Source: Gammaproteobacteria bacterium
Lineage (GTDB): Bacteria > Pseudomonadota > Gammaproteobacteria > Steroidobacterales > Steroidobacteraceae
Length of the DNA stretch: 64,000 bases
Reading direction: 5' to 3'
Assembly (NCBI GenBank): GCA_025358295.1
Contig: JANYJY010000010.1
Coordinates: 25,913 to 89,912, forward strand
Shown one piece after another: positions 19,451-50,732 of the stretch (positions are counted from its first letter, which is position 1; each line of letters begins with the position of its first letter). The position numbers were made by a program, and so were the translations under genes. The notes beneath the pieces were generated by a model, which was given only the letters and a program-made list of their open reading frames with translations, was not told the DNA's origin and did no database searches.

Positions 19451-19468
19451 AAACAGTCAAGACTGTTT
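19451..19468. promoter_or_regulatory. Island palindrome site 1: AAACAGTCAAGACTGTTT (perfect 8+8 inverted repeat)
   Basis: Lies in the intergenic gap, about 50 nt upstream of the SDR ATG at 19401 that heads the SDR - ThuA - Rieske - E1ab - PQQ operon. An A-run precedes it and a T-run follows. Confidence 0.6.
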
Positions 19469-19474
19469 TTTATG

Positions 19475-20230
19475 TCACTGGGCTATCAGGCCATTGTCGA
19501 TGACGATTTCCGTCGCATTGACGAATCGCGACTCGTCCGACGCAAGATAAACCACCAAATTCGCGACGTCTTCGGGTTTGCCCAGTCCCACGGCAGTGTT
19601 GTACACCGACATGGACATGCCCAATTCAGCCGTGGCCTTCACCACCATGGGTGTCTCGATAGCGCCGGCGTGAATGGAATTGCAGCGCACATTGTAATTA
19701 TTCATCTGGCAGTGCACCGCAATAGCCTTGGTCATCGAGCGCACGGCGCCCTTGGCCGCCGAGTAGGCATAAAACACCGGATACCCCAGGTGGGTGGCCG
19801 TCGAGCACATATTGATGATGGAGCCGCCCCCGGACTCCTTCATCACTGGGATTCCATACTTGCAGGCGAGAAAAACGCTGTCCGTCATGACGCGCAGGTG
19901 CGCGTGAAATTGATCCAGGGTGGCGGACTCCGGCGTGCCGATCACCACCATGCCGGCGTTATTCACCAGCACATGCAGGCCGCCGAAACGGCGCCGGGTC
20001 TCTGCGAAAACCTCCTGCCAGCGGCTCTCGCTGGATACATCGTGCACGAGAAATAGGGTGCTGCCCGCCCTGGCGGCATTCAATTCCGCCTCCAAAGCAC
20101 GGCCTGCAGCCTCATTGATGTCCGTGATCACGACGCTGGCGCCTTCCCGAACTAATGCTGAGGCGTCCGCCTTGCCGAGACCGGAAGCCGCCCCGGTTAC
20201 CAATGCCACCTTGCCGCTGACTCGACCCAT
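19475..20230 (-). CDS. Short-chain dehydrogenase/reductase (hydroxysteroid-dehydrogenase-like classical SDR)
   Basis: 251 aa. Motifs: VALVTGAASGLGKA, NNAG, YSAAKGA. Confidence 0.88.
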   Translation of the reverse strand: MGRVSGKVALVTGAASGLGKADASALVREGASVVITDINEAAGRALEAELNAARAGSTLFLVHDVSSESRWQEVFAETRRRFGGLHVLVNNAGMVVIGTPESATLDQFHAHLRVMTDSVFLACKYGIPVMKESGGGSIINMCSTATHLGYPVFYAYSAAKGAVRSMTKAIAVHCQMNNYNVRCNSIHAGAIETPMVVKATAELGMSMSVYNTAVGLGKPEDVANLVVYLASDESRFVNATEIVIDNGLIAQ

Positions 20231-20294
20231 GATGTCCCCCTATCCTTAATGTATGCCAGTGGGCTGAAACCTATCAGTCAACCCATCCGGTTTC

Positions 20295-20310
20295 AATCAG
20301 ATCTGACTTT
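20295..20310. promoter_or_regulatory. Degenerate related palindrome AATCAGATCTGACTTT in the SDR/TetR divergent gap
   Basis: TCAGATCTGA is a perfect palindrome. It shares ATCAG-NN-CTGAC with site 4 (ATCAGTACTGAC). It is 65 nt from the SDR start and 75 nt from the TetR start. Confidence 0.4.
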
Positions 20311-20384
20311 TTCAAGCAGGCGATACAACTTTGGCTTATAAAGGATTTTTGAGAAGCCGCCTCATTCAAGGGAACGTATAACGC

Positions 20385-21035
20385 ATGGCAGCAAATGGAC
20401 CAGGATCGAGCAGCGGCGTAGGCGAGGCCTTGGCGCCCGTCGGTTGGCAGGCTCAAAAGAGCGCATCGACGCGCACCCAGATCATCGAAGCGGCCATCAA
20501 ATGCCTGGTCGAATTGGGGTATGCCCGCACCACTACCGCCGTGATCGCCGAAAAGGCCGGCTTATCGCGCGGTGCCATGCTGCACCATTTTCCGTCGAAA
20601 ATGGACATCGTCAGAGCGGCCGTCGACTACTTGCATGCAAAGCGGCTGCGCGCCATGCGCAAGTCCATGGCTAAGGAACCCATCGATGGCGATCACGTCA
20701 GGCTGGGCGTGCAAAGTTACTGGACTCATGTCAAACATCCCTGGTTCGTCGCCTTTTTCGAACTCGCGGTGGCGGCGCGCACGGACAAGGAACTCGCCGC
20801 CATTTTATTCCCCGCGCAGGAAGCCTTTGAAAAGGAGTTCTTGACCACCAGCCTCGAATTCTTTCCCGAATGGAAGCGCAAGGGCGAAAAATTCCTGCTG
20901 GGCTTCGACCTAAGCCGCTATGTGATGGAAGGCATGGCCATCAGCTTCTTGACGCACAAGGAGACCGAGCGCGATCAGCGCGTGCTGCGTTACCTGGAAG
21001 AGAAGCTCACGGAACTGGCCGGCGAGGATCGATAG
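20385..21035 (+). CDS. TetR/AcrR-family transcriptional regulator
   Basis: 216 aa. Has an N-terminal HTH (TRTQIIEAAIKCLVELGYARTTTAVIAEKAGLSRGAMLHHFPSK). It is the only regulator gene inside the central island. Confidence 0.88.
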   Translation: MAANGPGSSSGVGEALAPVGWQAQKSASTRTQIIEAAIKCLVELGYARTTTAVIAEKAGLSRGAMLHHFPSKMDIVRAAVDYLHAKRLRAMRKSMAKEPIDGDHVRLGVQSYWTHVKHPWFVAFFELAVAARTDKELAAILFPAQEAFEKEFLTTSLEFFPEWKRKGEKFLLGFDLSRYVMEGMAISFLTHKETERDQRVLRYLEEKLTELAGEDR

Positions 21036-21062
21036 GCGGCGGCCCGGCGCTTCCCGCGAAGT

Positions 21063-21356
21063 TCAGCTCTTCCAATCCAGCAATTGCAGATCCATGTCGC
21101 CTTCCACGCACGCCATGATGGGCGGCACGAGACGATCGTGAAATGGGCTGGCCTGGTGCGCCTGAAATGCCGCTTCGTCCTTGAATCGGGCGTACACCAC
21201 GTAGGTGCGTGCCTTGGTGCGGCTCTTGATCACATCATAGACCAGAGTGCCCGGTTCGTCGGCGTGAGTCAGTTCGGAAAGCTCCTTTTGCAGCCGTTCG
21301 AACTCAGTCTCCTTGCCTTGCTTGATAGCCAATGTGGCGATGAAAGTCGTCGACAT
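21063..21356 (-). CDS. Antibiotic-biosynthesis-monooxygenase (ABM, ferredoxin-like dimeric alpha-beta barrel) domain protein
   Basis: 97 aa from the ATG at 21356 with an AGGAG SD: MSTTFIATLAIKQGKETEFERLQKEL...YARFKDEAAFQAHQASPFH. The longer listed ORF (to 21425) would overlap the upstream ABM gene. Confidence 0.65.
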   Translation of the reverse strand: MSTTFIATLAIKQGKETEFERLQKELSELTHADEPGTLVYDVIKSRTKARTYVVYARFKDEAAFQAHQASPFHDRLVPPIMACVEGDMDLQLLDWKS

Positions 21357-27028: not shown

Positions 27029-27112
27029 GAATAGCTCCCCTCTAAAAAGATCGATTTAGGCTTTGCGCCTTTTCGGAATATCGCAACACAAGCTACGCGG
27101 GACTCTCAAAAA

Positions 27113-27134
27113 AAACAAGCCTGACGGTTTGTTT
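27113..27134. promoter_or_regulatory. Island palindrome variant (22-nt class): AAACAAGCCTGACGGTTTGTTT
   Basis: Lies about 85 nt upstream of the TonB-dependent receptor start at 27028. It has AAACAAG/TTTGTTT arms, contains CTGAC and is preceded by an A8 run. It is a weaker match than the others. Confidence 0.35.
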
Positions 27135-28150: not shown

Positions 28151-28194
28151 GCATGTACTCCTTGGTCAATAGCCTATACCCCAGGGCAATAAAA

Positions 28195-28212
28195 AAACAG
28201 TCAGGTCTGTTT
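28195..28212. promoter_or_regulatory. Island palindrome site 2: AAACAGTCAGGTCTGTTT
   Basis: Lies in the divergent gap between GST-like 27224..28150 (45 nt away) and Rieske oxygenase 28277 (65 nt away). It is flanked by A7 and a T-rich run. Confidence 0.55.
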
Positions 28213-28276
28213 CTTTTTTGTTGCCGGGTATAATCTTAAGGATACGGAAAGGTCGGCAGAAAGAGGCATCTGGGTC

Positions 28277-29488
28277 ATGGACAGCGCAACAGTGCAACGG
28301 TTTCTCGACGGCATGAAGTACGAGGCGGAGCGGACCGGCCCGCCCCCGGGTTTCCCTGCGTTTCCCGATATTCCGGCGGGGCGCTACACCGACCCCGCCT
28401 TTCTCAAACTCGAGTCCGAACAGCTGTGGCATAAGAGCTGGCTCTACGCCTGCCACGTTGACGAGCTTCCGCAACCCGGCAGCTACCTGCTGTGGAAGAA
28501 AACCGGAACCCCCATTCTCATCCTGCGCGGCAAGGATGAGGTCATCCGTGCGTTCTATAACACCTGCCGGCATCGCGGCGGTCCGCTGGTCAAGACCGAG
28601 TGCGGCAAGGTCGACGGACTGGTCTGCGGTTACCATGGCTGGACCTATTCGCTCGACGGCAAGCTCATCAATCTGCGCGACAAGCGTGACTTCCCCTGTC
28701 TCGACATGTCGACCCGCTCGCTCATCGACGTGCGTTGCGAGCGCTTCTACAACTGGGTGTTCATCAACGAGAATCCGCACGCCGAACCGCTGCTGCAGCA
28801 CACCCATCCGTTCTTCGACTATTTCAAGCAATTCGAGCCCGACTGCTGGCGGTTCGTCGCGAAGACGGCTCACGATGTGAAGTGCAACGTCAAGGTGCTG
28901 CTCGATGCCTTCCTTGAGGTCTATCATTTGAAATCCATTCACCAGGGCACGGTGGACCGCTTTCTGGATCACCGCGGCACGACCATTGCCCTGTACCGCA
29001 ACGGGCACTCCATCATGGTCACGCCGAACCGGCGTCCGGATTGGAAGGATCCCGGCACGCGCGGTCTGCGCCATATCGAGTCGGCCACCGTCATCTCCTC
29101 GAAGAACAATCCATCATTCAATTTCTATCCCAATCTGGTTGCGCCGGTGGACCCCAGTGGAGTTCCCTTTCTTTTGTTTTGGCCGACGTCCGATACGACC
29201 ATGCGAATCGAATGCCACTGGTTTGCGCCGGATTGGGGCGGCGGACCGCTGCCCGAGCTGTGGAAAATTCGCATGACGAATTTCGAGCGCATTCTCGAGG
29301 AGGATTTGCAATTCGCTCCGCAAATCCAGGAATCGCTGATGTCGCCGGGATTTCGCGGCATTCCGCTCAATTATCAGGAGCGCCGAATTTATCATTGGCA
29401 CGAAGAGCTGGACCGGCGCATCGGCAGCGAGCGCGTGCCCGTGCAATTGCGCATCGAGCCCCTTCTCGAACCCTATTATGAAAACTGA
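28277..29488 (+). CDS. Rieske non-haem-iron oxygenase, alpha subunit (paralog 2)
   Basis: 403 aa. Has CRHRGGPL...CGYHGW and the iron motif LEVYHLKSIH. Confidence 0.88.
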   Translation: MDSATVQRFLDGMKYEAERTGPPPGFPAFPDIPAGRYTDPAFLKLESEQLWHKSWLYACHVDELPQPGSYLLWKKTGTPILILRGKDEVIRAFYNTCRHRGGPLVKTECGKVDGLVCGYHGWTYSLDGKLINLRDKRDFPCLDMSTRSLIDVRCERFYNWVFINENPHAEPLLQHTHPFFDYFKQFEPDCWRFVAKTAHDVKCNVKVLLDAFLEVYHLKSIHQGTVDRFLDHRGTTIALYRNGHSIMVTPNRRPDWKDPGTRGLRHIESATVISSKNNPSFNFYPNLVAPVDPSGVPFLLFWPTSDTTMRIECHWFAPDWGGGPLPELWKIRMTNFERILEEDLQFAPQIQESLMSPGFRGIPLNYQERRIYHWHEELDRRIGSERVPVQLRIEPLLEPYYEN

Positions 29489-29500
29489 GTGCGGTATGCG

Positions 29501-30934
29501 ATGAGCAAGCCCGCCGCCATTTTGCGGATGGGCGTGCACGTCCCGAAGCTGCGCCTGGCGCGATCGGCCATTGCCGCCGCCATGGCATGGGCCAGCCCCC
29601 CCGGACGCAGCGGCGCCCGCGGCGCTCGCGCGCTGTGCAATTGGGACGAAGACGCACTGACCATGGCGGTCGAAGCCGCGCGCAGCGCTCACGATCCCGA
29701 CGGCGCACCTCAGTCCGTCCTGTTCTGTTCGACCACCGCGCCCTTCGCCGATCGCGATGACGCCGTCATGCTGGCCTCTGCCCTCGACTTGTCGGATTCG
29801 ATCGACAGCTTGAACCTCGGCGCCTCGCTGCGCGCCGGCACCAGCGGCTTGATCAGCGCCGCGCGGCGCGGCGACGCCCGCACGCTGCTGGTCGCGAGCG
29901 ACGCTCGCCTGACGCGCGCCGGCAGCCCACAGGAAATGACCTATGGCGATGCCGCGGCGGCGTTGCTGCTCGGGCCGACCAATCCGGCGGCCCTCGCCAG
30001 CGTGCTCGCAACGCGGACTCTGGGCAGCGATTTCGTGGACCATTATCGGATGAGCGGCGCGAGCTTCGATTACGGCCTAGAGGAACGCTGGATACGCGAA
30101 GAGTCGCTGCTGCAGTTGATTCCTCGGGCCGTGTCGGAGCTGTTGGCGGCGGCGGGTTTGAACGCCGGGGCCATTGGACATTTCGTCATGCCTGGGAGCG
30201 CAGTTACCGCCAAGCGTGTTGCCGAAGCGTGTGGTCTACAAGCCGCGCAGCGCGACGCGCGGGCGCTGACCGAATGCGGCGACGCCGGCACGGCGATGCC
30301 GCTGCTGATGCTCGCCGGCGCGCTCGAGACGGCCGCGCCCGGCGACCTCATCATTCTGATCGGCATCGGCCAGGGCGTGGACGCGGTGCTGCTGCGCGCC
30401 GAAGCAGGACTGCGCCTTGCAGGGAAGGTCTTTGCCGGTGCACTTGCCGCCCAGCAGGAGGAACCCAGCTACGTGCGCTACCTGTCGCATCGCGCCCTAA
30501 TCGATGTCGATTTCGGCATGCGCGCCGAACGGGACCAGCGTACTGCGCATACGGTGGCCTACCGCAAACGCGACGCCCTCAATGCCTTCAAGGGTGGCCG
30601 CTGCGAGCATTGCGGCACCGTGCAATTTCCGCGCTCGCGGGTCTGCGTCAACCCGCAGTGCCGGCAGACGGACACTCAGGTTGCGCACCGGCTCGCGGAC
30701 TCGCGTGGCAGAGTCAAATCCTTCACCGAGGATTGGCAGGCCTATGCGGCGCGCCCGCCTTATATATACGGCAATGTCGAATTCGCCGAAGGCGGAAATC
30801 TGCTCATGGAGTTCACCGACGTCGAAGCCGGCGCGCTGAAGGTCGATGATGCGGTGCGTTTCGTGTACCGCATCAAGGATGAAGATCGCGCGCGGCGCTT
30901 TCGCCGCTACTTCTGGAAAGCAACCACGGTTTGA
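29501..30934 (+). CDS. HMG-CoA-synthase-like (thiolase-superfamily) domain fused to a DUF35 zinc-ribbon/OB-fold domain
   Basis: About 477 aa (a GTG at 29489 is an alternative start). N-terminal motifs: NWDEDALTMAVEAARSA, ...LGASLRAGTSGL..., YGDAAAALLLG. C-terminal motifs: CEHCGTVQFPRSRVCVNPQC followed by an OB-like segment. Confidence 0.7.
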   Translation: MSKPAAILRMGVHVPKLRLARSAIAAAMAWASPPGRSGARGARALCNWDEDALTMAVEAARSAHDPDGAPQSVLFCSTTAPFADRDDAVMLASALDLSDSIDSLNLGASLRAGTSGLISAARRGDARTLLVASDARLTRAGSPQEMTYGDAAAALLLGPTNPAALASVLATRTLGSDFVDHYRMSGASFDYGLEERWIREESLLQLIPRAVSELLAAAGLNAGAIGHFVMPGSAVTAKRVAEACGLQAAQRDARALTECGDAGTAMPLLMLAGALETAAPGDLIILIGIGQGVDAVLLRAEAGLRLAGKVFAGALAAQQEEPSYVRYLSHRALIDVDFGMRAERDQRTAHTVAYRKRDALNAFKGGRCEHCGTVQFPRSRVCVNPQCRQTDTQVAHRLADSRGRVKSFTEDWQAYAARPPYIYGNVEFAEGGNLLMEFTDVEAGALKVDDAVRFVYRIKDEDRARRFRRYFWKATTV

Positions 30935-30944
30935 AGGCGGCTCA

Positions 30945-32168
30945 ATGGCAAGCGGAATCAAGGATAAAGTAGTCATCGTCGGCATGGGCTGCTCCAGTTT
31001 CGGCGAGCGCTGGTCCTGCGGGCCCGATGACTTGATGGTCGAAGCCTTCGACGAAGCGCTCGCCGATGCGGGCATCGTGCGCGACCGTATCGACGCGGCG
31101 TGGCTCGGCGTGTTCTTCGACGAGCAAAATACCGGCAAGTCCTCGCTGCCCCTGTCCATGGCGCTGCGGCTGCCGAATGTGCCGACGACGCGGGTCGAGA
31201 ATCTATGCGCCACCGGCACCGAGTCGCTGCGCGGCGCCGTGTATGCAGTGGCGTCCGGAGCCTGCGACATCGCTCTCGCCATGGGGGTGGAGAAACTCAA
31301 GGACACGGGATTTTCCGGTCTGCCAGAGCGCACCAAGGGAACCTTCGAGGATCTGTATCTGCCGACCAGCACGGCGCCCGGGGCTTTCGCCCAGCTTGCC
31401 AGTGCCTACGCGGCGAAGCACGGCTATTCCATGACCGAGCTGAAGCGCGCCATGGCGCATATCTCCTGCAAGAGCCACGAGAACGCCACGCGCAATCCCA
31501 AGGCGCATTTGCGCCATCGCATCACCCCCCAGCAAGTCCTCGATGCGCCGGCCATCTCCTATCCGCTCGGCGTCCTGGATTGCTGCGGCGTGAGCGACGG
31601 TGCAGCCTGCGCCATCGTGACCACGCCCGAGATCGCGCGCGAGCTGGGCAAGCGCGACCTCGTGTCGGTGAAGGCATTGCAGCTGGCACCCAGCAACGGG
31701 GTCGAGATGGGTCATCAATCCTGGGACGGCAGCCATACGCTGACCACGCCGATCGCCGCGCGCCGCGCCTACGCGGAGGCCGGCATCGCAAATCCCCGCG
31801 AGGAAATAGATCTCATCGAAGTGCATGATTGCTTCTCGATCACCGAACTAGTGCTGATGGAGGATTTGGGATTCTCCGATGTCGGTCGCGCTCCTCACGA
31901 CGTGCTCGACGGACGCTATGACTCCGGCGGCGCCATACCCTGCCAGATCGACGGTGGCTTGAAGTGCTTCGGGCATCCCATCGGCGCCACCGGACTGCGC
32001 ATGGCGTATGAGATTTATCTGCAGCTGCTCGGACGCGCCGGCGAACGTCAATTGCGTGGGCGTTCCGGACACGGGCCCGCCATCGGACTCACGCACAATC
32101 TCGGCGGAATTCCCAACCGCAACATCGCCAGCGTCTCGATTTTGGGCCTACTCTCCGCTTCACACTGA
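30945..32168 (+). CDS. SCP-x/lipid-transfer-type thiolase
   Basis: 407 aa from the ATG at 30945 (MASGIKDKVVIVGMGCSSFGERW), with an SD upstream. Motifs: NLCATGTESL (nucleophile Cys), EVHDCFS, and GHPIGATG near the C-terminus. Confidence 0.85.
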   Translation: MASGIKDKVVIVGMGCSSFGERWSCGPDDLMVEAFDEALADAGIVRDRIDAAWLGVFFDEQNTGKSSLPLSMALRLPNVPTTRVENLCATGTESLRGAVYAVASGACDIALAMGVEKLKDTGFSGLPERTKGTFEDLYLPTSTAPGAFAQLASAYAAKHGYSMTELKRAMAHISCKSHENATRNPKAHLRHRITPQQVLDAPAISYPLGVLDCCGVSDGAACAIVTTPEIARELGKRDLVSVKALQLAPSNGVEMGHQSWDGSHTLTTPIAARRAYAEAGIANPREEIDLIEVHDCFSITELVLMEDLGFSDVGRAPHDVLDGRYDSGGAIPCQIDGGLKCFGHPIGATGLRMAYEIYLQLLGRAGERQLRGRSGHGPAIGLTHNLGGIPNRNIASVSILGLLSASH

Positions 32169-32179
32169 AGGACACCGTC

Positions 32180-39125: not shown

Positions 39126-39143
39126 AATCAGTACTGACTGTTT
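39126..39143. promoter_or_regulatory. Island palindrome site 4: AATCAGTACTGACTGTTT
   Basis: Lies 26 nt upstream of the E1-alpha ATG at 39169, after the GST-like gene ends at 39030. Confidence 0.55.
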
Positions 39144-39168
39144 TTTTATTTTGCTGCAGGGGGGAGAA

Positions 39169-40143
39169 ATGGCCGATCAATCCTACGATCCGATCATGCT
39201 GCTGGACGCCTATCGGCGCATGCGCGCCATCCGGGACTTTGAGGAACGCATGCGGCGTGAAGTCCAAGCCGGCACGGTGCCGGGATTTGTGCACTTGTAT
39301 TGCGGTCAAGAAGCTGTCGCCGTCGGCACCTGTATGCACCTGCTCGATACTGATTATATCGGCAGCACCCACCGCGGCCACGGACACTGCATCGCCAAGG
39401 GTTGCGACATCGGCGACATGCTGCTCGAGATCTATTGTAAGCAGGGCGGCCTGTGCAACGGCAAGGGTGGCTCGATGCACATTGCCGATTTGCGCAAGGG
39501 GATGCTCGGCGCCAATGCCATCGTGGGCGCGGCGCCGCCGATTGCCGTCGGCGCGGCATTGAGCCAGTCCACGCTGCAAACCGGTGGGGTTACCGTCACT
39601 TTCATCGGTGACGGGGCGTCCAATCAAGGCACGGTTGCCGAATCCTTGAACATGGCATCCATCCTGAAACTGCCGCTGATATTTCTTTATGAGAACAACG
39701 GCTATGCCGAGTTCACCGGCATCTCATACCACTTGGGCGGCAATATCGCGCGCCGCGCCGCGGGCTTCGGCATGCCGGGCGAGACCGTGGACGGAGTCGA
39801 CTTTTTCGCCGTCTATGACGCCGTCGGCCGCGCGGTGGAACGGGCGCGCAAAGGCGAAGGCCCGAGCGCCGTCGAGGCCGTCGCGATGCGCTGGTATGGT
39901 CATTTCGAAGGCGACATGCAGCTGTACCGGGATCCCCAAGAAGTGGATCGCCTGCGCGCGACTGCCGATCCTCTCGTCAAATTCGAGGACCGCGCAATCC
40001 GCGATTTCGGAATCTCCAAAGATGAATTGGTGGAAATCGATGAGGAAATCGCGGAACTGATCGAGGACCGCGTTGTGGCGGCGAAAGCAGCGCCCAAGCC
40101 GCCGCGCGAAGCGCTATACACAGACGTCTACGGGAGTTACTGA
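39169..40143 (+). CDS. TPP-dependent E1 alpha subunit, AcoA-like (second copy)
   Basis: 324 aa from the ATG at 39169 with a GGGGAG SD (the listed start 39151 is a TTG). Motifs: STHRGHGHCIAKG and GDGASNQG. Confidence 0.9.
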   Translation: MADQSYDPIMLLDAYRRMRAIRDFEERMRREVQAGTVPGFVHLYCGQEAVAVGTCMHLLDTDYIGSTHRGHGHCIAKGCDIGDMLLEIYCKQGGLCNGKGGSMHIADLRKGMLGANAIVGAAPPIAVGAALSQSTLQTGGVTVTFIGDGASNQGTVAESLNMASILKLPLIFLYENNGYAEFTGISYHLGGNIARRAAGFGMPGETVDGVDFFAVYDAVGRAVERARKGEGPSAVEAVAMRWYGHFEGDMQLYRDPQEVDRLRATADPLVKFEDRAIRDFGISKDELVEIDEEIAELIEDRVVAAKAAPKPPREALYTDVYGSY

Positions 40144-40144
40144 T

Positions 40145-41173
40145 ATGCCGATCAAGTCGTTTCGCGACGCCATCAATGAGACCCTCAAGCAGGAGATGCG
40201 TCGCGATTCGCGCGTCATCGTCATGGGCGAGGATGTGGTCGGCGGCATGGGCGGCAGCTCCGGCGTGGCCGAAGCCGCCGGCGGCACCTTCGGCGTCACT
40301 GCGGGACTCGCGGCCGAGTTCGGACGGCGGCGCGTCATCGATACGCCGATTACCGAATCGGCCATCATCGGCGCGGCGGGCGGCGCCGCACTCACCGGTC
40401 TGCGGCCGGTGGCGGAACTCATGTTCATCGACTTCATCGGCGTCTGCCTCGACCAGATCCTGAATCAGCAGGCCAAATTTCGCTACATGTTCGGCGGTAA
40501 ATGCAGCGTCCCCGTCACCATTCGCACCTTGATGGGTGCCGGACTCGGCGCCGGGCCGCAGCATTCGCAGAGCTTGCACGCCATTCTCACGTCCATTCCC
40601 GGCATCAAGGTGGTCTTGCCGTCGAATGCCGCGGATGCCAAGGGCTTGCTGGCGACGGCGATTCGCGACGATGATCCGGTCATTTTTTGTGAGCATAAAT
40701 TCCTCTACGGCGAAAGCTGCGAAGTACCGGACGGCGAATATCTGATTCCCTTCGGTAAAGCCAACGTGACGCGCCGCGGCAGCCACGTGACCGTCGTGGC
40801 CTTCTCACGCATGGTATTGCTCGCCAACAAGGTCGCCGACAAGTTGGCGAAGGAAGGGATTTCCGTGGAAGTGATCGATCCGCGCACCACCTCGCCGCTC
40901 GACCGCGACAGCATCCTGGAGTCGATCGAGAAAACCGGCCGTCTCGTGGTTGTCGATGAGGGAGGCCCGCTATGCGGCATGGCGAGTGAAATCGCGAGCC
41001 TGGCGGCGTGCCATGCATTGTCGGCATTGAAGGCGCCTGTGCAAAAAGTGACGCCGCCGCACACCCCGGTGCCGGCGACGCCGCATTTGGAACAGGATTG
41101 GGTGCCCTCGCCGGAGAAGATCGAACTTGCGATCCGCACCACCTTGGACCAGAAGCTGGCGCGTACCGGATGA
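40145..41173 (+). CDS. TPP-dependent E1 beta subunit, AcoB-like (second copy)
   Basis: 342 aa from the ATG at 40145 (MPIKSFRDAINETLKQEM...VIVMGEDV...VIDTPITESAIIGAAGGAAL). Confidence 0.9.
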   Translation: MPIKSFRDAINETLKQEMRRDSRVIVMGEDVVGGMGGSSGVAEAAGGTFGVTAGLAAEFGRRRVIDTPITESAIIGAAGGAALTGLRPVAELMFIDFIGVCLDQILNQQAKFRYMFGGKCSVPVTIRTLMGAGLGAGPQHSQSLHAILTSIPGIKVVLPSNAADAKGLLATAIRDDDPVIFCEHKFLYGESCEVPDGEYLIPFGKANVTRRGSHVTVVAFSRMVLLANKVADKLAKEGISVEVIDPRTTSPLDRDSILESIEKTGRLVVVDEGGPLCGMASEIASLAACHALSALKAPVQKVTPPHTPVPATPHLEQDWVPSPEKIELAIRTTLDQKLARTG

Positions 41174-41472
41174 GTCAGACCACCGGTTACGGCTGCTACA
41201 TGCGCGTGCGCACCAAGCCGCACAAGCGCGACGAATTCGTGCGGCTGATTTTGGAGCTGCGCCGGCAGGCGCTTGCCAACGAACCTGCAACGCTGTTCTT
41301 CGAATTCTTTCAGGCGGCGGACAGCAATGAATTCGTATTCCTCGAGGGCTTCGTCGATGAGTCCGCACAGCAACGGCATCAACAAGCTCCTTACCATTTG
41401 GCGATGTCGGAGGCAGGATGGGCATGCTTGGACGGACAGCCGACCATCGAATTCATGAAGCCGGCGCGCTAG
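41170..41472 (+). CDS. ABM-domain protein
   Basis: 100 aa from the internal ATG at 41170: MSQTTGYGCYMRVRTKPHKRDEFVRLILELRRQAL...FLEGFVDESAQQRHQQAPYH. The start overlaps the E1-beta stop (ATGA). Confidence 0.6.
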   Translation: MSQTTGYGCYMRVRTKPHKRDEFVRLILELRRQALANEPATLFFEFFQAADSNEFVFLEGFVDESAQQRHQQAPYHLAMSEAGWACLDGQPTIEFMKPAR

Positions 41473-43457
41473 CCGCCGCGCTGATTGGGCTGATCTTCGC
41501 GTCGGCTTGCTGGGCTGAGGCCCCCGGCGTGGTGACGTCCAGCGTGGTGACGCCCAGCGTGACCGCGGGTTGGAGCTATTACGGCGGCACCAGCGACGGC
41601 ACGCGTTATTCGACGGCGCATCAAATCAATCGCGATAATGTCGCCGACCTGCGCTTGGCCTGGAGCTATTCCACCGGAGAGATGCAGCGGCGCGGCGCGG
41701 ATTTGATCGCTAACAGCTCCACCGAGACCACCCCTATCCTGGTCGACGGCAATCTCGTGTTCTGCACGCCCTTCAATCGCCTGGTGGCGCTCGATCCGGG
41801 CACCGGCCGCGAGCGCTGGAGCCTGGATCCGAAAATCGACCTGAGCCACCCGATTCCCTATCAATACAATTGCCGCGGCGTGTCCTTCTGGCGCGACAGC
41901 CAGAGCATGGGGCCGCAGCTGTGCGCCACGCGCATATTCATGGCCACCAACGACTCGCGCATCATCGCCGTGGACGCGGCCACCGGCAGGCGCTGCCCCA
42001 ACTTCGGCGTCAACGGGGAAGTCACCCTCGTCCGCGATGCGCCGCCGAAATTTCCCGGGGAAGTCTCCATTTGTTCAGCGCCCGTGGTCGCGCGTGATGT
42101 GGTGGCCGTCGGCTCTTTCATCATGGACAACCTGCGCACCGATGCGCCCTCCGGGACGGTGTTCGGCGTGGATGTGCGATCCGGGGCGCTGCGCTGGAAA
42201 TTCGAGCCGGTGCCCCGCGATCCGGCGGATCCCGCCATGTCGACTTGGCTCGAGGGTAGCGCGACGCGAACCGGCGCCGCCAATGTGTGGTCGACCATGG
42301 TCGCAGACGAAGTGCGCGGCATCATCTATGCGCCGGTGGGTTCCGCCTCGCCGGATTTCTACGGCGGTGCGCGCAAAGGCAATAATTCATATTCCAGCTC
42401 GCTTGTAGCGCTCGATGCGACCACGGGCCGGCCCATATGGAATTTCCAGAGCGTGCATCACGATGTGTGGGATTACGATGTGTCGGCTCCCCCGCTGCTC
42501 GCGACTCTGCGCAAGGACGGCGCCAACATTCCGGTCGTCGTGCAGAACACCAAACAGGGCTTCGTGTGGGTGCTCAATCGCGAAGACGGCAAGCCGGTAT
42601 TCGGAGCGGTCGAGAAGCCCGTGCCGCAGAACGGACTGCCCGGCGAATGGCTCTCGCCCACCCAGCCTTTTCCGATCAAGCCCGCCCCGCTGGTGCCGCT
42701 CACATTGACGCCCGACGATGCCTGGGGATTCACGTTTTGGGACAAGCGCGCCTGCCGCAAGAAAATCGAATCACTGCGATCGCAAGGCATTTTCACACCG
42801 GCGTCGACCGCACCGGGCACGCTGTTGGTGCCGGGTTCGGCGGGCGGCGCAAACTGGGGTGGAGCGGCCTACGACGCCGAACATCAACTGATGATCGTCA
42901 ATGTCAACCGCGCGGCACAGGTCGTGATCATGATTCCGCGCAAGCAGATTCCGAGCCTCACCGGCATCAGCCTCGCCAACGGCACGGATGTCTCGGCGGC
43001 GACCGGCACGCCCTATGGCGTGCACCGCGAATGGCTGCTGTCGCCATGGGGCGCGCCCTGCAGTCCGCCCCCCTGGGGCGAGCTCGTCGCCCTCGATCTG
43101 TCGGACGGCAGCGTGCGCTGGCGAGTGCCTCTAGGGTCGATCGAGAAGCATCTGCCTTTCCACTTCGAGTGGAATCTGGGCACACCGAATCTGGGCGGCC
43201 CCATCGTCACGTCCGGCGGATTGGTGTTCATCGCCGCCACGATGGACGGATTTCTGCGAGCCTTCGATCTGCAATCGGGAAAAATGCTGTGGCGGGTCGA
43301 GCTGCCGGCCGGCGGCCAGGCGACGCCCATGACCTATGAAATCGGCGGGCGGCAGTATCTGGTCATGGTGACCGGACATCACATGTGGTTTGGCTCTCCG
43401 GCGGGCGACGCAGTGGTCGCCTACGCCCTCCCCGACTCCCGCGCCGCGGCGCACTAG
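41418..43457 (+). CDS. Exported PQQ-dependent dehydrogenase, glucose/quinate/shikimate-dehydrogenase family (no N-terminal membrane domain)
   Basis: 679 aa. Has a signal-like N-terminus (...ALAAALIGLIFASACWA). Motifs: WSYYGGTSDGTRYS..QINRDNV..L.LAWSY and ...TPILVDGNLVFCT...ALDPGTGRERW. No alternative in-frame start exists downstream of the ABM stop, so the overlap of about 50 nt appears real. Confidence 0.85.
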   Translation: MGMLGRTADHRIHEAGALAAALIGLIFASACWAEAPGVVTSSVVTPSVTAGWSYYGGTSDGTRYSTAHQINRDNVADLRLAWSYSTGEMQRRGADLIANSSTETTPILVDGNLVFCTPFNRLVALDPGTGRERWSLDPKIDLSHPIPYQYNCRGVSFWRDSQSMGPQLCATRIFMATNDSRIIAVDAATGRRCPNFGVNGEVTLVRDAPPKFPGEVSICSAPVVARDVVAVGSFIMDNLRTDAPSGTVFGVDVRSGALRWKFEPVPRDPADPAMSTWLEGSATRTGAANVWSTMVADEVRGIIYAPVGSASPDFYGGARKGNNSYSSSLVALDATTGRPIWNFQSVHHDVWDYDVSAPPLLATLRKDGANIPVVVQNTKQGFVWVLNREDGKPVFGAVEKPVPQNGLPGEWLSPTQPFPIKPAPLVPLTLTPDDAWGFTFWDKRACRKKIESLRSQGIFTPASTAPGTLLVPGSAGGANWGGAAYDAEHQLMIVNVNRAAQVVIMIPRKQIPSLTGISLANGTDVSAATGTPYGVHREWLLSPWGAPCSPPPWGELVALDLSDGSVRWRVPLGSIEKHLPFHFEWNLGTPNLGGPIVTSGGLVFIAATMDGFLRAFDLQSGKMLWRVELPAGGQATPMTYEIGGRQYLVMVTGHHMWFGSPAGDAVVAYALPDSRAAAH

Positions 43458-44725
43458 ATCGGTTCGAGGGTCACCCACAATTCGCGCAAATTGCGGCCGA
43501 AGAAGCTCGGTTGGTAGTCAGGCTCGGCATGACCGACCAACAGCGAAAAACCCCGGTAGCGATCCAGCAGCGCGCTGAAGGCGCTGCTCAGCTCCTGACG
43601 CGCCAACTGCGCGCCGATGCAGTGATGCCGGCCGATGCCAAGCGCCAAGTGCTTACCCGGCTGCTTGCGATCAAGATCGATGCGATCCGCATCCGGGAAC
43701 TGCGCCTCGTCGCGATTGGCCGAGCCGAATCGCAGCGACAACAAGTCCCCGGCGGCCAGTTCCACGCCGCCGAGTAGCGTCGGTTTCACGACCCGCCGAA
43801 ACATGCCCTGCGCGGGCGACTCCAGTCGCAGGATCTCCTCCACCAGATTGGCAGTCAGGTTGCGATCGGCCCGCAGCTCCGCCAGGGCCTTTGGGTCGCG
43901 GATCAGCAGCAGCAGCCCGGACGTGATGGCAGCGGTGGTCGTCTCATTGCCGGACGCGAGCAAGTCGATGGTGATGATGGTGAGCTGTTCTTGGAGATTG
44001 AAATTCGTCTCCGGGCGGGCCGAGGCTTGTACCAATTCAGACAACAAATCCGCACGCGGCGCGCGGCGCCGCTGTTCCAGCTCGGCGGCGAAGTAATGCT
44101 GCATCTCCACGACCAGCCGCGCGCACTCCAGTTCGCGCTCCGCGGATACCATCATGCTGAAAGGCTCGACAATGGCATCGGACCAGGCTTTGAAGCGGTT
44201 CAGATCGTCGTGCGGAATGCCGATCAGGTCGGCGATGACGATCATCGGCAGCGGATGCGCGAACTCGTGCACGAACTCAATACCGGTGCGTCCGGCGAGA
44301 CCGTCCAGCAGTGCGACGGCCGTGCGATCGATCAGAGGCTTGATCCCACGCACACGCTGCACGGTGAACAAAGGCTCCAGGAACTTGCGCACGCGCGTGT
44401 GCACCGGCGGATCGGAAGTCGAACACGATGCCAGCGGCAGCCAACCCTGCTTCTGGTAGACATCGATGATTTCCTGCGGCACGCCGTCGGGCTTGATCGC
44501 CATGGGGCTGACGCCGCTCTCGTACAAGTCCGGATGACGCATGATCTCGCGGCAAAGCTCGAAACTCGTCACGAGATAGAACCCGTTCTGCGGCATGCGG
44601 TACACGGGCGCCTGAGCGCGCGCAGCCTTGTAGAAATCATAGGGACATTGCTGCACCTGCGGTTCCATAAGGTTCCAGGAATCGAGGGCAACGGGCACGT
44701 TTTGATTATCCATTTCTGACTTCAT
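43454..44725 (-). CDS. Cytochrome P450
   Basis: 423 aa. Has I-helix LLASGNETTT, an ExxR (EEILRLES) and the haem-thiolate loop LGIGRHHCIG. The start overlaps the upstream quinohemoprotein stop (ATGA). Confidence 0.9.
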   Translation of the reverse strand: MKSEMDNQNVPVALDSWNLMEPQVQQCPYDFYKAARAQAPVYRMPQNGFYLVTSFELCREIMRHPDLYESGVSPMAIKPDGVPQEIIDVYQKQGWLPLASCSTSDPPVHTRVRKFLEPLFTVQRVRGIKPLIDRTAVALLDGLAGRTGIEFVHEFAHPLPMIVIADLIGIPHDDLNRFKAWSDAIVEPFSMMVSAERELECARLVVEMQHYFAAELEQRRRAPRADLLSELVQASARPETNFNLQEQLTIITIDLLASGNETTTAAITSGLLLLIRDPKALAELRADRNLTANLVEEILRLESPAQGMFRRVVKPTLLGGVELAAGDLLSLRFGSANRDEAQFPDADRIDLDRKQPGKHLALGIGRHHCIGAQLARQELSSAFSALLDRYRGFSLLVGHAEPDYQPSFFGRNLRELWVTLEPI

Positions 44726-46581
44726 CTACCGTCGACGGAAAAGACCAACAACACATTGCCGCCCATCCGGCCGCCGAATAGGTAACCGGAATTCACCACC
44801 ACACGGCCGTTCGCAACGACCGCGCCGGCACTCTCTATCGAGCCGCCGTGCGCCTTACCGCCGCCCACCGTATCGAATTGACCATGGGTATCGAAGGACC
44901 AAAGCAGCTGACCGTCGCGTTCACGGTAGGCGCGCAGCCAGCCGTCGAAGGACGGCTGAAACACAGCGCCCGGAATCGACGTCGCCGGCGGCGAATAACC
45001 GCGATCGCAAGCCGGCTTGTCCGCTGCCGCGCAGACATCGGGCGCGGCCGCGAACCACTTGATCGCGCCGCTCTCGGGACTAAGTGCAAACAGCCCGGGT
45101 TTCGCTTCGCCCTTCTCGGTGCCGAGAAATATCGTATCGGCATTCGGCGCGTACAAAACCGATGCTGAGGCGGCCATGCCCCAATGCACTCCTCCGGCAA
45201 ATCCTCCCCGTCCATACTTGACGTGCCAGACCAGCGTGCCGTCGTCCGGGTTCAACGCGAAAACATCGGCAGATTTCTCTCCCACGAGCAGCACATCTTT
45301 GCCGCTCTTGAGTTTATGCAGGATGGGCGGCGCGCCGATATCGAGATCCGGGCCGTTCTCCAGAGGACAGTTCGGTCCGCCGCCGATGAAACACGCCATG
45401 TTCCAGGCATCGTGCTGAATCGACTGATGCCACCACAACATGCGACCCGTATCCAAATCGTAGGCGATGACTGCATCGCTTTGCGGTACCGCGGGTGAGG
45501 TGTAGGACTCGCCGGTGCCCACGTACAGGCGCCGACGCTTTACATCGATGGTAGGAGAATTCCAAACCGGCGCACCGGCCGGAGCGTGACGCAATGTCCC
45601 CGCCGATGTGCGCTCACCGGTCGCTTGCGGCTCACCCGGAATCGAATAGCTTCGCCACACGACATGTCCGTCAGTGGCGTCCAGTGCCGCCACACCGCCG
45701 CGGAAGGTGCAGCATTCGTAACTGGGATCCGCCGCCGCCGACCATTCATTCGACGACAGGGGAACGTAGAGACGGCCGGCGTAGTAGCGCGGCGAACCCG
45801 TGATGGTCAGCCGCGGATGCGCATCCACTCGGGTCGTCCATAACAGCTTGCCGCTCAAGGCATCGAGCGCATACGCATTGCCGCTGAAATCGCCGAACCA
45901 CAATCGGGGCCGTGCCTTGACATCACCCTTGCGCCAGGGCTCGAGGATCGGGCTGACGCGAACCTCCGCCGCGGCCTGAAAACTCCAGCGAACGCAACCG
46001 GTGTCGTAGTCCAGCGCATACACCGTGCCGTCCTGACTGCCGACGAAAATTGCACCCGCACCGATGGTGGGCTGCGAGCGGGCGCGCGAGGCGCCCGGAA
46101 AGGCAAAAGCCCATTTAAATTTCAAGCGCGGCACGTCGCGGGCGTCGAGACCTGCCGCAGCCGCATCGATGTGGCGGGAATTCTCGAGGGTCATGCCCCA
46201 ACCCGCCAGTGGTGGGGGGCTGCGCAAATCGAATTGCTGGCGATCCGCCGGACACTCAGGTCCCGCCACCTGCCCCGAGACGGGCAGAGCGGCGCCACCC
46301 AGGAATTCCGCCACCGACTGCCGCTCGCCGGGGGTCAGGTGGGAGCCCTGCTCCTGCATCGCCCCGGACTCCAGGGCCGACATGATCGCCCGCGGACCGA
46401 GCATTTGGAATTCAACCGAATGAGGCGCCCGCGGTACCCCGCCTTCATGACAGGTGGCGCAAATCGAGCCGTAGATTTCCGCGGGTGGCCGCTCAGCGGC
46501 TGCGGAAACCCCTGAATTTAAAGCCAAAATCGCCAGGATCACCGATCCCGACAGCCGTGCCAGCAAGCATTTATTTTGCAA
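44722..46581 (-). CDS. Exported quinohemoprotein: cytochrome c + PQQ propeller (PVADH-like, paralog 2)
   Basis: 619 aa. TTG start with a GGGGAG SD 8 nt upstream. Has a signal peptide (...ILALNSGVSAAAE), a CATCHEG haem c site and propeller repeats (GSQDGTVYALD, GKLLWT). Confidence 0.85.
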   Translation of the reverse strand: MQNKCLLARLSGSVILAILALNSGVSAAAERPPAEIYGSICATCHEGGVPRAPHSVEFQMLGPRAIMSALESGAMQEQGSHLTPGERQSVAEFLGGAALPVSGQVAGPECPADRQQFDLRSPPPLAGWGMTLENSRHIDAAAAGLDARDVPRLKFKWAFAFPGASRARSQPTIGAGAIFVGSQDGTVYALDYDTGCVRWSFQAAAEVRVSPILEPWRKGDVKARPRLWFGDFSGNAYALDALSGKLLWTTRVDAHPRLTITGSPRYYAGRLYVPLSSNEWSAAADPSYECCTFRGGVAALDATDGHVVWRSYSIPGEPQATGERTSAGTLRHAPAGAPVWNSPTIDVKRRRLYVGTGESYTSPAVPQSDAVIAYDLDTGRMLWWHQSIQHDAWNMACFIGGGPNCPLENGPDLDIGAPPILHKLKSGKDVLLVGEKSADVFALNPDDGTLVWHVKYGRGGFAGGVHWGMAASASVLYAPNADTIFLGTEKGEAKPGLFALSPESGAIKWFAAAPDVCAAADKPACDRGYSPPATSIPGAVFQPSFDGWLRAYRERDGQLLWSFDTHGQFDTVGGGKAHGGSIESAGAVVANGRVVVNSGYLFGGRMGGNVLLVFSVDGR

Positions 46582-46620
46582 GATATTGCTCCCCCGGGTA
46601 ATGCCCGGATAATAACAAAC

Positions 46621-46638
46621 AAACAGTCATGATTGTTT
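46621..46638. promoter_or_regulatory. Island palindrome site 5: AAACAGTCATGATTGTTT
   Basis: Lies in the divergent gap between the quinohemoprotein/P450 operon (start 46581) and the TonB-dependent receptor (start 46747). Confidence 0.55.
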
Positions 46639-46746
46639 TTTTCTCGATGTTGAGTTAAGTTCGCCGAAATAATGAAGGTTCCGCCGGGAACGATTTTTGC
46701 CGATGGCTTTACACAAGGCGGTTCGTCCGCCGCAAGGGGAGTTGAT

Positions 46747-49302: not shown

Positions 49303-49327
49303 CGCAAATCACGGTTGATTCGGCAAA

Positions 49328-49354
49328 GCGTGCGGCGCGCAATGCGCCGCACGC
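49328..49354. terminator. GC-rich hairpin after TonB-dependent receptor 2
   Basis: GCGTGCGGCGC - GCAAT - GCGCCGCACGC, a perfect 11-bp stem. It lies in the convergent gap between 49302 and 49389. Confidence 0.55.
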
Positions 49355-49359
49355 AGAAC

Positions 49360-49383
49360 CACCGGCCCCGCTTGGGGCCGGTG
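49360..49383. terminator. Second GC-rich hairpin in the same convergent gap (serves the E2 gene on the minus strand)
   Basis: CACCGGCCCC - GCTT - GGGGCCGGTG, a perfect 10-bp stem with a tetraloop. It lies 6 nt from the E2 stop codon. Confidence 0.55.
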
Positions 49384-49388
49384 TCCAT

Positions 49389-50618
49389 TTACAAGCTGGT
49401 CGGTTGTTCCAACAAGGCCCTCAATGCCCCGAGGAATTGCGCTCCGACGGCGCCATCCACCACCCGATGATCCGCTGACAGCGTCAGAGTCGCGGTTTTC
49501 GCAATCAGTTGGCGGCCGTTCCTGACGATGACCCGATCGGCCGCCGCGCCCACCGCGAGAATCGCCACCTGCGGCGGATTGATGATGGCATCGAAACGAT
49601 CGATGCCAAACATGCCGAGATTGGAAATCGTGAATGACCCCCCGGATATCTCCTCGCGGGTCAGGCGGTTCGTGCGCGCGCGCTCGGCGAAATCGCGAAC
49701 CTCGGTGCCGATCTGTGCCGGCGTCTTTAGCTCCGCACCGCGCACCACGGGCGTGATCAAGCCGTTCTCGGTGGCGATGGCAATGCTGATGTCGGCGTGC
49801 GCCGACTTGAGAATTTCATCGCCGACCAATTGCGCGTTCACCGCCTTGTGCGCCATCAAGGTGATGGCCGTGGCGCGCACCAGCAAGTCGTTGACGGAAA
49901 CCTCCCCGCCCGAGGCATTCAGCGCGGCGCGCTGCTCGAGCAGAGCAGTAAAATCGACGTCGACCTCGAGGCGGTAGTGCGGGATCTCCTGAGTCGATGC
50001 CAGCAGCCGCTTGGCGATAGTCGCGCGCATCGATGACATCTTTTCCCGCACCGGCGCGGCCGACGGAGCCGCTACCGCCGCATTGCCCGCTTGCGGGGTC
50101 GCCCCGGACCCCGACTTGGCGGCATAGGCTTCCACATCCTCTTTGGACACACGCCCATTGCGTCCCGTGCCCTGCACCTTGCTGATGTCGATACCCAGCC
50201 GCTCCGCCACGCGACGCGCGATGGGGCTGATGCGCCCCTCCTCGGTCGGCGCCGCGGCGGGCGCCGGAGTCTGCGCCACGCCGGCTGCAGCAGGCGATGA
50301 GTCCGGTTCGAAGCTGGTATTGGGCGGCTTGAACTCGCGCACAAAGGCATTGATTTGCTCATCCGATACCGAAGGCTCGGCGAATACGGCGATAAGAGCA
50401 CCGACATTTTCGACGGCGCCCGCTTCCGCGAGAATTTGCCGAAGCACGCCGCTGACCGGCGCTTCAACGGAATTCACAATTTTTTCGGTCTCAACGTCCA
50501 GCAAGGTGTCGCCTTTTTGCACCGTTTGGCCCGGCGCGGCGTGCCATTGCGTGATGGTGCCCTGTTGCATCTCGATGCCCCACTTCGGCATCGTGATTGG
50601 AAAAATCTGCTGGCTCAT
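49389..50618 (-). CDS. Dihydrolipoamide acyltransferase (E2) with one lipoyl domain
   Basis: 409 aa. Has a lipoyl-lysine box (LLDVETEKIVNSVEAP), a peripheral-subunit-binding domain (ISPIARRVAERLGIDISKVQGTGRNGRVSKEDV) and the catalytic DHRVVDG. Confidence 0.9.
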   Translation of the reverse strand: MSQQIFPITMPKWGIEMQQGTITQWHAAPGQTVQKGDTLLDVETEKIVNSVEAPVSGVLRQILAEAGAVENVGALIAVFAEPSVSDEQINAFVREFKPPNTSFEPDSSPAAAGVAQTPAPAAAPTEEGRISPIARRVAERLGIDISKVQGTGRNGRVSKEDVEAYAAKSGSGATPQAGNAAVAAPSAAPVREKMSSMRATIAKRLLASTQEIPHYRLEVDVDFTALLEQRAALNASGGEVSVNDLLVRATAITLMAHKAVNAQLVGDEILKSAHADISIAIATENGLITPVVRGAELKTPAQIGTEVRDFAERARTNRLTREEISGGSFTISNLGMFGIDRFDAIINPPQVAILAVGAAADRVIVRNGRQLIAKTATLTLSADHRVVDGAVGAQFLGALRALLEQPTSL

Positions 50619-50710
50619 AATCGCTCCGGGTTGCTTGGCGAAGGGCGGGATGACGTGCGTCCCCGCGGCGCCGTGGCGCCTACCCCTATTAAATCACTGT
50701 TGAGCCGAAA

Positions 50711-50732
50711 AAACAGTCAGCTCTGATTGTTT
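50711..50732. promoter_or_regulatory. Island palindrome site 6 (22-nt class): AAACAGTCAGCTCTGATTGTTT
   Basis: Lies in the divergent gap between E2 (start 50618) and Rieske oxygenase 3 (start 50782). It has 10-nt arms with one mismatch and is flanked by A- and T-runs. Confidence 0.6.

Follow-up and report, generated by a model that had tools for sequence, protein, structure and literature searches.

A conserved 26-bp palindrome at promoters of a catabolic gene island in uncultured Steroidobacteraceae: a predicted operator and its candidate TetR-family repressor

The catabolic island and its palindromic sites

We examined a stretch of 64,000 nucleotides from a Steroidobacteraceae genome (contig JANYJY010000010.1, assembly GCA_025358295.1), hereafter the window, in which an inverted repeat recurs in the intergenic regions of a catabolic gene island. 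Annotation with Pfam, which matched the gene map of an earlier first-pass annotation of this DNA, assigned to the island three Rieske oxygenases, two TonB-dependent receptors (TBDR), a cytochrome P450 and an acyl-CoA synthetase (ACS), together with three dehydrogenases of the pyrroloquinoline quinone (PQQ) type, two of which carry a cytochrome c domain. The island further encodes two E1 alpha/beta pairs, one E2, five short-chain dehydrogenases (SDR), three glutathione S-transferases (GST), a thiolase with a DUF35 protein, and two VOC proteins. The candidate repressor gene, tetR (20385..21035, plus strand; Pfam TetR_N), encodes a regulator of the TetR/AcrR family and is located in the same span.

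With as many as two mismatches allowed, six copies of the pattern AAACAGT-N4-ACTGTTT are present in the window, where 0.04 would be expected, and none of 100 shuffled sequences reached this number. We then scanned the window with a weight matrix built from 164 sites of related genomes; since these training sites had been picked with the pattern of the first-pass annotation, the core columns of the matrix are biased. Seven positions scored between 28.7 and 47.1 bits, the next best position in the 64 kb reaching only 4.0 bits. All seven strong sites are intergenic, as had been claimed for every copy, and no strong site was found by the matrix within 1-19 kb or 51-64 kb, in agreement with the earlier statement that the flanking regions are free of the motif; the flanks covered without any site amount to approximately 32 kb. 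The six main sites of the first-pass annotation (19451, 28195, 33743, 39126, 46621 and 50711) have the coordinates and sequences reported for them, including an identical 20-mer at 33746 and 39129, whereas the site at 27113, which had been ranked as weak, proved to be strong at 38.2 bits. Of the seven, four occupy gaps with divergent starts (28195, 33743, 46621 and 50711) and three occupy gaps between co-directional genes, following the stop codons of SDR2 (19451), GST1 (27113) and GST3 (39126). The earlier count of five copies in divergent gaps thus holds for four, a fifth being reached only if the weak sequence at 20295 is included. This sequence, described as a degenerate variant, has a full-matrix score of -2.4 bits and is not canonical, although it is kept in every orthologous TetR/SDR gap. 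The strong sites, designated O1 to O7, are as follows (scores from the weight matrix; -10 boxes are predicted).

19447..19472 (core 19451-19468): O1, 46.0 bits; 2 nt past the SDR2 stop codon and 58 nt ahead of the SDR1 start (ATG 19401, minus); -10 box TACACT 19424-19429 (minus)
27109..27134 (core 27113-27130, AAACAAGCCTGACGGTTT): O2, 38.2 bits; upstream of TonB-dependent receptor 1 (start 27028, minus); -10 box TAGCTT 27090-27095 (minus)
28191..28216 (core 28195-28212): O3, 44.7 bits; common to GST1 (GTG 28150, minus) and the Rieske2 operon (ATG 28277, plus); -10 boxes TATAAT 28229-28234 (plus) and TATAGG 28173-28178 (minus)
33739..33764 (core 33743-33760): O4, 47.1 bits; common to SDR3 (start 33677, minus) and the ACS operon (probable start 33816, plus); -10 boxes TACTGT 33781-33786 (plus) and TATACT 33717-33722 (minus)
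39122..39147 (core 39126-39143, AATCAGTACTGACTGTTT): O5, 42.6 bits; between the GST3 stop (39030) and the E1-alpha-2 start (ATG 39169)
46617..46642 (core 46621-46638): O6, 44.2 bits; common to the quinohaemoprotein/P450 operon (start 46581, minus) and TonB-dependent receptor 2 (start 46672, plus)
50707..50736: O7, the variant with a 4-nt gap, AAACAGTCA (50711-50719), GCTC, TGATTGTTT (50724-50732), 41.1 bits with a gapped matrix versus 28.7 bits ungapped; common to E2 (start 50618, minus) and Rieske3 (start 50782, plus); -10 boxes TACCAT 50749-50754 (plus) and TTTAAT 50688-50693 (minus)

The variant half-sites of O2, AAACAAGC/ACGGTTT, are seen again upstream of TBDR1 orthologues, and in orthologues of O3 the -10 box is at a fixed offset. 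O5 is located directly 3' of a sigma-70-like promoter (TTGTAC at 39089-39094, 18 nt, TATTAT at 39113-39118), and would cover approximately +1 to +26; this promoter was assigned by reading the sequence and is not listed by a simple promoter scan. The genes behind the seven sites are given below, with Pfam as the basis throughout and PDB sequence matches in addition for the ACS operon; where several genes are named, the unit is a putative regulated operon.

12434..19401, minus: operon behind O1, with tightly packed genes; SDR1, ThuA-like, Rieske1, E1-alpha, E1-beta, PQQ/cytochrome c dehydrogenase
24533-27028, minus: TonB-dependent receptor 1 (TBDR1), behind O2
27224-28150, minus: GST1, behind O3
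28277..32770, plus: operon behind O3; Rieske2, DUF35/ChsH2-like, thiolase-like, CMD
32793..33677, minus: SDR3, behind O4
33816..39030, plus: operon behind O4; ACS, two VOC proteins, SDR4, GST2 (Nu class), GST3
39169..43457, plus: operon behind O5; E1-alpha-2, E1-beta-2, ABM, PQQ dehydrogenase
43454..46581, minus: operon behind O6; PQQ/cytochrome c dehydrogenase, P450
46672..49302, plus: TonB-dependent receptor 2, behind O6
49389..50618, minus: E2 acyltransferase, behind O7
50782..52143, plus: Rieske3 oxygenase, behind O7

The start of the acyl-CoA synthetase gene is likelier to be ATG 33816 (MAEFNKIGG...) than the ATG at 33777 of the longest open reading frame (ORF), which overlaps the predicted -10 box TACTGT (33781-33786). 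Comparison of the GST proteins with lignin beta-etherases placed GST2 in the Nu class, while GST1 and GST3 match uncharacterised GST-like proteins. The island contains paralogous modules, as seen when 12434-16410 is compared with 39169-46581 (across the island, E1 alpha/beta twice, PQQ/cytochrome c twice, Rieske three times, TonB receptor twice and GST three times), which suggests internal duplication of the island, every copy having its own operator. The 699-aa ORF at 22390-24489 is over-extended, since its CoA-transferase III domain comprises residues 308-676 only; its first part overlaps an acyl-CoA dehydrogenase on the opposite strand, and the true start is near 23311. A fused isobutyryl-CoA-mutase-like gene with B12-binding, MeaB GTPase and mutase domains (7057-10398) belongs to the left flank and not to the regulon. 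A megablast search of the 19-44 kb region against PLSDB returned nothing beyond short single-gene matches, indicating that the island is not a known plasmid cluster. Our search of the literature found no description of either the motif or the island, parts of the motif having turned up only as primers in unrelated papers.

Conservation, symmetry and promoter setting of the palindrome

To place the window sites in a comparative setting, we used 80 loci (1.38 Mb) from species-representative genomes, retrieved by their acyl-CoA synthetase (protein identity 87-64%) and extending 10 kb either side of the synthetase gene, with crude gene calls from GC content at third codon positions and tblastn. 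Nearly all of these loci derive from uncultured Steroidobacteraceae or Steroidobacterales, with a few Woeseiaceae-like metagenome-assembled genomes. The pattern (up to two mismatches) matches 164 sites in the 80 loci, whereas the weight matrix identifies 203 sites above 15 bits across the loci and the window, with 179 above 30 bits in the loci. The island occurs in several gene orders, yet the motif is found at the same junctions, which it occupies in approximately 74 of the 80 species-level genomes. The number of loci with a site at each junction is listed here (divergent pairs joined by <>; CoAT3, CoA-transferase III; ACAD, acyl-CoA dehydrogenase; RieskeFd, Rieske ferredoxin).

GST1<>Rieske2: 26/27
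SDR3<>ACS: 20/20
Rieske2<>TBDR1: 11/11
SDR1/SDR4: 10/10
ACAD>ACS: 8/8
SDR4>Rieske3: 13/16
RieskeFd<>ACS: 12/17
SDR1/SDR2: 4/14
ACAD<>CoAT3: 0/31
tetR<>SDR2: 0/18 gaps (at 25 bits or more)

Junctions within operons are nearly free of sites (DUF35/Rieske2 0/41 and most others zero; ACS/VOC1 2/33 and E1a1/Rieske1 2/24), and convergent junctions of the orthologous loci have none. Upstream of Rieske3 orthologues, 13 of 16 loci carry the form with the 4-nt gap. Two divergent gaps of the window, at 23239-23310 (ACAD<>CoA-transferase) and at 21357-21469 (ABM<>Rieske ferredoxin), are likewise motif-free, the first also in 31 of 31 orthologous loci, indicating that not every island promoter belongs to the regulon.

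The strong sites in the related loci are restricted to the island: 171 of 179 fall within island spans and the other eight are at island edges or beside weaker homologues of island genes. Across the non-island flanks, which total 310 kb in the 80 loci, no site was found without an island-type gene nearby. The first-pass annotation had named a similar density in unrelated gaps as the sign of a generic element, and no such density was seen in this flank or in the flanks of the window, a partial test in that the scan included no complete genome.

Metagenome contigs were scanned with the outer pattern AAANAAACAG-N6-CTGTTTNTTT, giving 120 loci that form two populations. Approximately 47 hits are on contigs of at least 56% GC and have centres of the TCnnGA type, and approximately 40 of these have island homologues alongside, which ties the motif to the island and argues against a generic element. 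The low-GC hits (L081-L200) have CAGC...GCTG centres, in the form AAAAAAACAGC-loop-GCTGTTTTTTT, and look like ordinary bidirectional terminators or chance matches unrelated to the island. On a contig of 69% GC (L091:376-1120), an ORF with a TetR-like N-terminus, judged by eye, is directly followed by AAACAAACAGACCAGTCTGTTTTTTT, with no island genes nearby; this sequence may be a terminator or an unrelated site. At L160:2178-5954, a canonical site lies between a divergent ORF that by eye resembles acyl-CoA dehydrogenases and unannotated ORFs absent from the window, so that in some genomes additional operons may belong to the regulon. One Woeseiaceae-like metagenome-assembled genome (L079), a distant relative, keeps the island order (Rieske2<>GST2, RieskeFd<>ACS) and has no AAACAGT motif (best score 1.3 bits). 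Its Rieske2<>GST2 gap contains another AT-rich palindrome, CTTGAATATTATTCAAAAAA, at 7120-7139, which may reflect turnover of both regulator and operator; the downstream genes in this genome resemble those of steroid ring degradation, comprising a CoA-transferase A/B pair, a KstD-like flavoprotein, a MaoC hydratase and an AMP-ligase.

The A-run and T-run that were originally described as usual companions of the motif are real and conserved. In the alignment of 164 sites, position -1 is A in 162 and positions 20 and 21 are T in 161-162, with one free position between flank and core. These conserved flanks, which the search pattern did not include, extend the element to a palindrome of 26 bp, AAA-n-AAACAGTC-n-TGACTGTTT-n-TTT.

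We next considered whether the symmetry belongs to a protein-binding site or to a nucleic acid structure. The window sites are predicted to form weak RNA folds of uneven strength, from -3.6 to -11.1 kcal/mol with z between -0.3 and -3.7. Across 115 distinct sites, complementarity between mirrored positions never exceeds what column frequencies predict, and at the variable pair 7/12 it is seen in 38% of sites compared with an expected 51%: G7/A12 occurs 34 times and T7/C12 28 times, whereas the compensated G7/C12 occurs only six times. A weak half is usually coupled with a consensus half, as is seen in protein-binding sites. In the 60 one-directional sites, the promoter-distal half contains 21.0 bits, compared with 18.5 bits for the proximal half, and the outer TTT is retained on 74% of non-facing sides. 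The absence of covariation, the conservation of the distal half and the weak stems point to the site of a symmetric DNA-binding protein. With a specific sequence conserved at orthologous promoters (some 180-200 sites in 80 loci), and two-fold symmetry maintained even in the half that faces no promoter, the element is almost certainly a transcription-factor operator specific to the island, as predicted from sequence. The conserved junctions, the restriction to the island, the metagenome scan and this protein-site behaviour together support the proposal of the first-pass annotation that the repeats are operators of a single regulon.

The operator also has a defined position relative to predicted promoters. 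Each site was oriented toward its gene and then scanned for -10-like hexamers, a strong one being present on 72% of 196 gene-facing sides as against 29% of 62 non-facing sides. The offsets peak at 16, 18, 20 and 21 nt past the core, with near-consensus boxes such as TATAAT, TATACT and TACCAT. Since these boxes lie 16-21 nt beyond the core, the operator covers the -35 region: a spacer of 17 bp puts the -35 hexamer, which typically reads TTnTTT, at motif positions 12-22, and the centre of the palindrome is approximately 38-42 bp upstream of the inferred transcription start. In divergent gaps, one palindrome serves two back-to-back predicted promoters. The window sites obey the same offset rule, the sole exception being O5, at approximately +1.

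The TetR protein as the candidate binding factor

The protein encoded by tetR matches the Pfam family PF00440 (E 1e-13), and its AlphaFold2 model consists of ten helices in an all-helical TetR-like fold (pLDDT 80), for which the best 50 matches listed in a fold search were all TetR-family regulators. For the DNA-binding domain, the nearest solved structure is TtgR (E 3e-13, residues 24-142). In 136 orthologues with overall identities of 54-90%, the segment GLSRGAMLHHFP and the N-terminal arm are at least 98% conserved in each column; this conservation of the recognition helix matches the invariance of the operator. The gene adjoins SDR2 in every arrangement that covers this region, including those on metagenome contigs and on a contig of 4.95 Mb. 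On the latter (L201:12018-17581), the island and tetR are followed by genes of resistance-nodulation-division efflux, encoding an outer-membrane factor and an AcrB-like pump. Among the matches listed in a homologue search, all were close relatives with at least 67% identity, so that this search did not separate the TetR protein from the island, and NCBIfam assigns it to no named subfamily. The earlier claim that this is the sole regulator of the span is borne out, as Pfam annotation of all ORFs of the 64-kb window, including the remaining ones, detected no other regulator. Clustering of the locus ORFs without a window homologue likewise produced no family present in more than seven loci and no further recurrent regulator.

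The gap between tetR and SDR2 differs from the other divergent gaps in that it contains a conserved block of its own.

20272..20312: conserved block of the tetR<>SDR2 gap; weak gapped site TATCAGTCA-ACCC-ATCCGGTTT (20272-20293) followed by AATCAGATCTGACTTTTT (20295-20312)

The block reads TAnCAGTCA-N4-nnCCGGTTT, then C-AATCAnCTTTGACTTTTT, and is present in 19 of 19 related loci that carry tetR as well as in the window. Its first part is a weak gapped site that scores 8-22 bits when only the core is considered, above the 99.9th percentile of positions, and it sits between the -35 (TTGAAA) and the -10 element of the SDR2 promoter; where the left half deviates it reads CAAGC, a variant also allowed in canonical sites. 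The second part, AATCAGATCTGACTTTTT, which is the 20295 site of the first-pass annotation, overlaps the -35 element of the tetR promoter (CTGACT at 20303-20308 in the window, TTGACT in the conserved block). The block may represent an autoregulatory site of different build. In the lake-type arrangement of the island, most genes form one long operon behind the tetR gap, and because the island genes then hang on this gap, the block is probably the functional counterpart of the canonical operator.

We propose that the palindrome is the multi-promoter operator of the island TetR protein, acting as a repressor of at least 11 transcription units, a reading to which we assign a probability of roughly 0.6 and in which we infer the identity of the binder, the direction of control, the stoichiometry and the inducer. 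Taken singly, it is rather likely that the factor binding the operator is the island TetR, judging from its standing as the only conserved regulator, from its TtgR-like DNA-binding domain and from the TtgR-like operator, and that the factor functions as a repressor is about equally likely. TetR (20385-21035) would bind the 26-bp operator, probably as two dimers like TtgR and QacR, and would block RNA polymerase at the seven operators by occluding the -35 region or, at O5, the start site. Approximately 11 transcription units, with approximately 30 catabolic and uptake genes, would come under its control, and in a divergent gap a single operator would shut two back-to-back promoters. The substrate of the pathway or an intermediate would act as the ligand that releases the repressor. 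The location of O5 downstream of its -10 box and of the weak tetR-gap site between -35 and -10 fits repression rather than activation.

Several observations weigh against this proposal. The tetR gap lacks a canonical site in all 18 cases and has only the differently built block, which leaves the customary mark of autoregulation, a copy of the same operator, weak. The -35 hexamers are poor, and the centre of the palindrome near -38 to -42 is the classic position of a class II activator. The fold of the whole TetR protein matches TtgR no better than other TetR proteins, and the likeness of the motif to the TtgR operator is only moderate. A rigid dimer would hardly accept both the ungapped and the 4-nt-gapped spacing. 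Finally, the loci reach 10 kb either side of the ACS gene, and a distant regulator or extra members of the regulon are possible beyond them.

The main rival explanation is therefore another factor, possibly a class II activator, encoded beyond the loci and acting at about -40, where it would make up for the weak -35 hexamers, with TetR then controlling only its own gap and the SDR2 promoter. We regard this as unlikely, while acknowledging that it is favoured by the weak TTnTTT hexamers at this distance from the inferred starts and by the distinct block, in place of a canonical site, between tetR and SDR2. The GTC-N2-GAC core may also resemble sites of the GntR/HutC type. Such a factor is at odds with the failure of any second regulator to recur in the 80 loci or the window, and with O5, placed 3' of its -10 box, a position from which no activator could act. 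In addition, most island genes of lake-type genomes depend on the tetR-gap promoter, whose gap contains half-sites of the same motif, including the CAAGC variant, which points to one factor, and a TtgR-like DNA-binding domain goes together with a TtgR-like operator.

A nucleic acid structure, either a weak bidirectional intrinsic terminator or an attenuator hairpin, is very improbable. The layout of A-run, palindrome and T-run, the position of three window sites (19451, 27113 and 39126) after a stop codon, the better folding of some sites than of their shuffles (z down to -3.7) and the low-GC metagenome hits to the outer pattern, which look like true terminators, would all suit it, but divergent starts flank four of the strong sites. 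Stem energies are low and inconsistent, simple sigma-70 and terminator scans flagged none of the sites, no Rfam family matches in the window, and it is the sequence itself, not just the shape, that is kept in approximately 200 sites. The hairpin or terminator reading was rejected on the basis of fold energy and of the absent covariation, complementarity being at or below chance with no compensatory changes. Least probable of all is a dispersed repeat of a generic kind, REP- or MITE-like, or else a nucleoid-protein site that is common in this DNA, which a short AT-rich palindrome repeated in GC-rich DNA might bring to mind, since the sites are junction-specific, keep a fixed distance to -10 boxes and are absent from the locus and window flanks wherever no island-type gene is near, and the GC-rich metagenome hits are nearly all beside island genes.

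Returning to TetR as the binder, a fuller scenario can be drawn, which as a whole we consider speculative and rather doubtful. One TtgR-like TetR protein would read the same half-sites in at least two spacings (ungapped, 4-nt-gapped and possibly split in its own gap), with the T-tracts of a promoter-operator module forming the -35 region. The module would have moved with each operon through the rearrangements of an island of approximately 35 genes, perhaps for a steroid- or terpenoid-like or a lignin-derived substrate, that occurs widely among uncultured Steroidobacterales from soils, lakes and sediments.

From the many dehydrogenase, oxygenase, GST and TonB-receptor genes of these uncultured Steroidobacteraceae, the motif singles out those that form one co-regulated pathway. 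A defined gene set combined with a defined sensor protein provides a handle for finding the substrate of the island, and the operator/regulator pair could be synthesised as a possible biosensor for this compound.

Comparison with known regulatory systems

The closest parallel is TtgR, which regulates ttgR/ttgABC in Pseudomonas putida and, like the proposed island regulator, has a long pseudo-palindrome (26-30 bp) overlapping promoter elements in a divergent gap. When the TtgR operator, printed as CAGTATTTACAAACAACCATGAATGTAAGTATATTCC (PMC4538802), is aligned with the island motif, the two are in the same register, centre on centre, with AAACA..CATGA.TGT in common. They agree at 16 of 26 specified positions, a score equalled by just 0.3% of shuffled TtgR operators (p ~0.003). 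The pseudo-palindrome bound by SmeT is 28 bp long, and SmeT shuts both divergent promoters (PMC3128119); QacR binds 28 bp as two dimers (PMC6018408). The 28-bp pseudo-palindromes of these two proteins fit the 26-bp length of the island operator. The systems also differ. TtgR and SmeT each control one efflux operon and themselves from a single operator, whereas the island has seven operators and approximately 11 catabolic and uptake units. Unlike TtgR, the island regulator has no canonical site in its own gap, its ligand-binding domain is not specifically TtgR-like, and its motif occurs with two half-site spacings, ungapped and with a 4-nt gap.

In its breadth, the proposed regulon is closer to those of TetR repressors that control catabolism through many operons, such as KstR and KstR2 in actinobacterial steroid catabolism and PsrA and FadP in fatty-acid degradation. 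As in KstR-type regulons, one local TetR protein would act at a conserved palindrome before many catabolic operons, recognisable by comparative genomics. The KstR motif is TnnAACnnGTTnnA; the island differs in the sequence of its motif, in its occurrence in uncultured Gammaproteobacteria and in its longer operator with conserved A/T tracts.

Class II activator sites, of the CRP/FNR or LuxR type, are centred near -41.5, and the island palindrome is similarly centred approximately 40 bp upstream of the inferred start, over a weak -35 hexamer. In contrast to such sites, no regulator of this kind is encoded close by, the distance to the -10 box differs among sites by as much as 5 bp, and one site is 3' of its -10 box. 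Set against these systems, the mechanism that we propose would be an ordinary arrangement of repressor and operator, unusual in the number of promoters served, in the two half-site spacings and in a module that moves with its operons.

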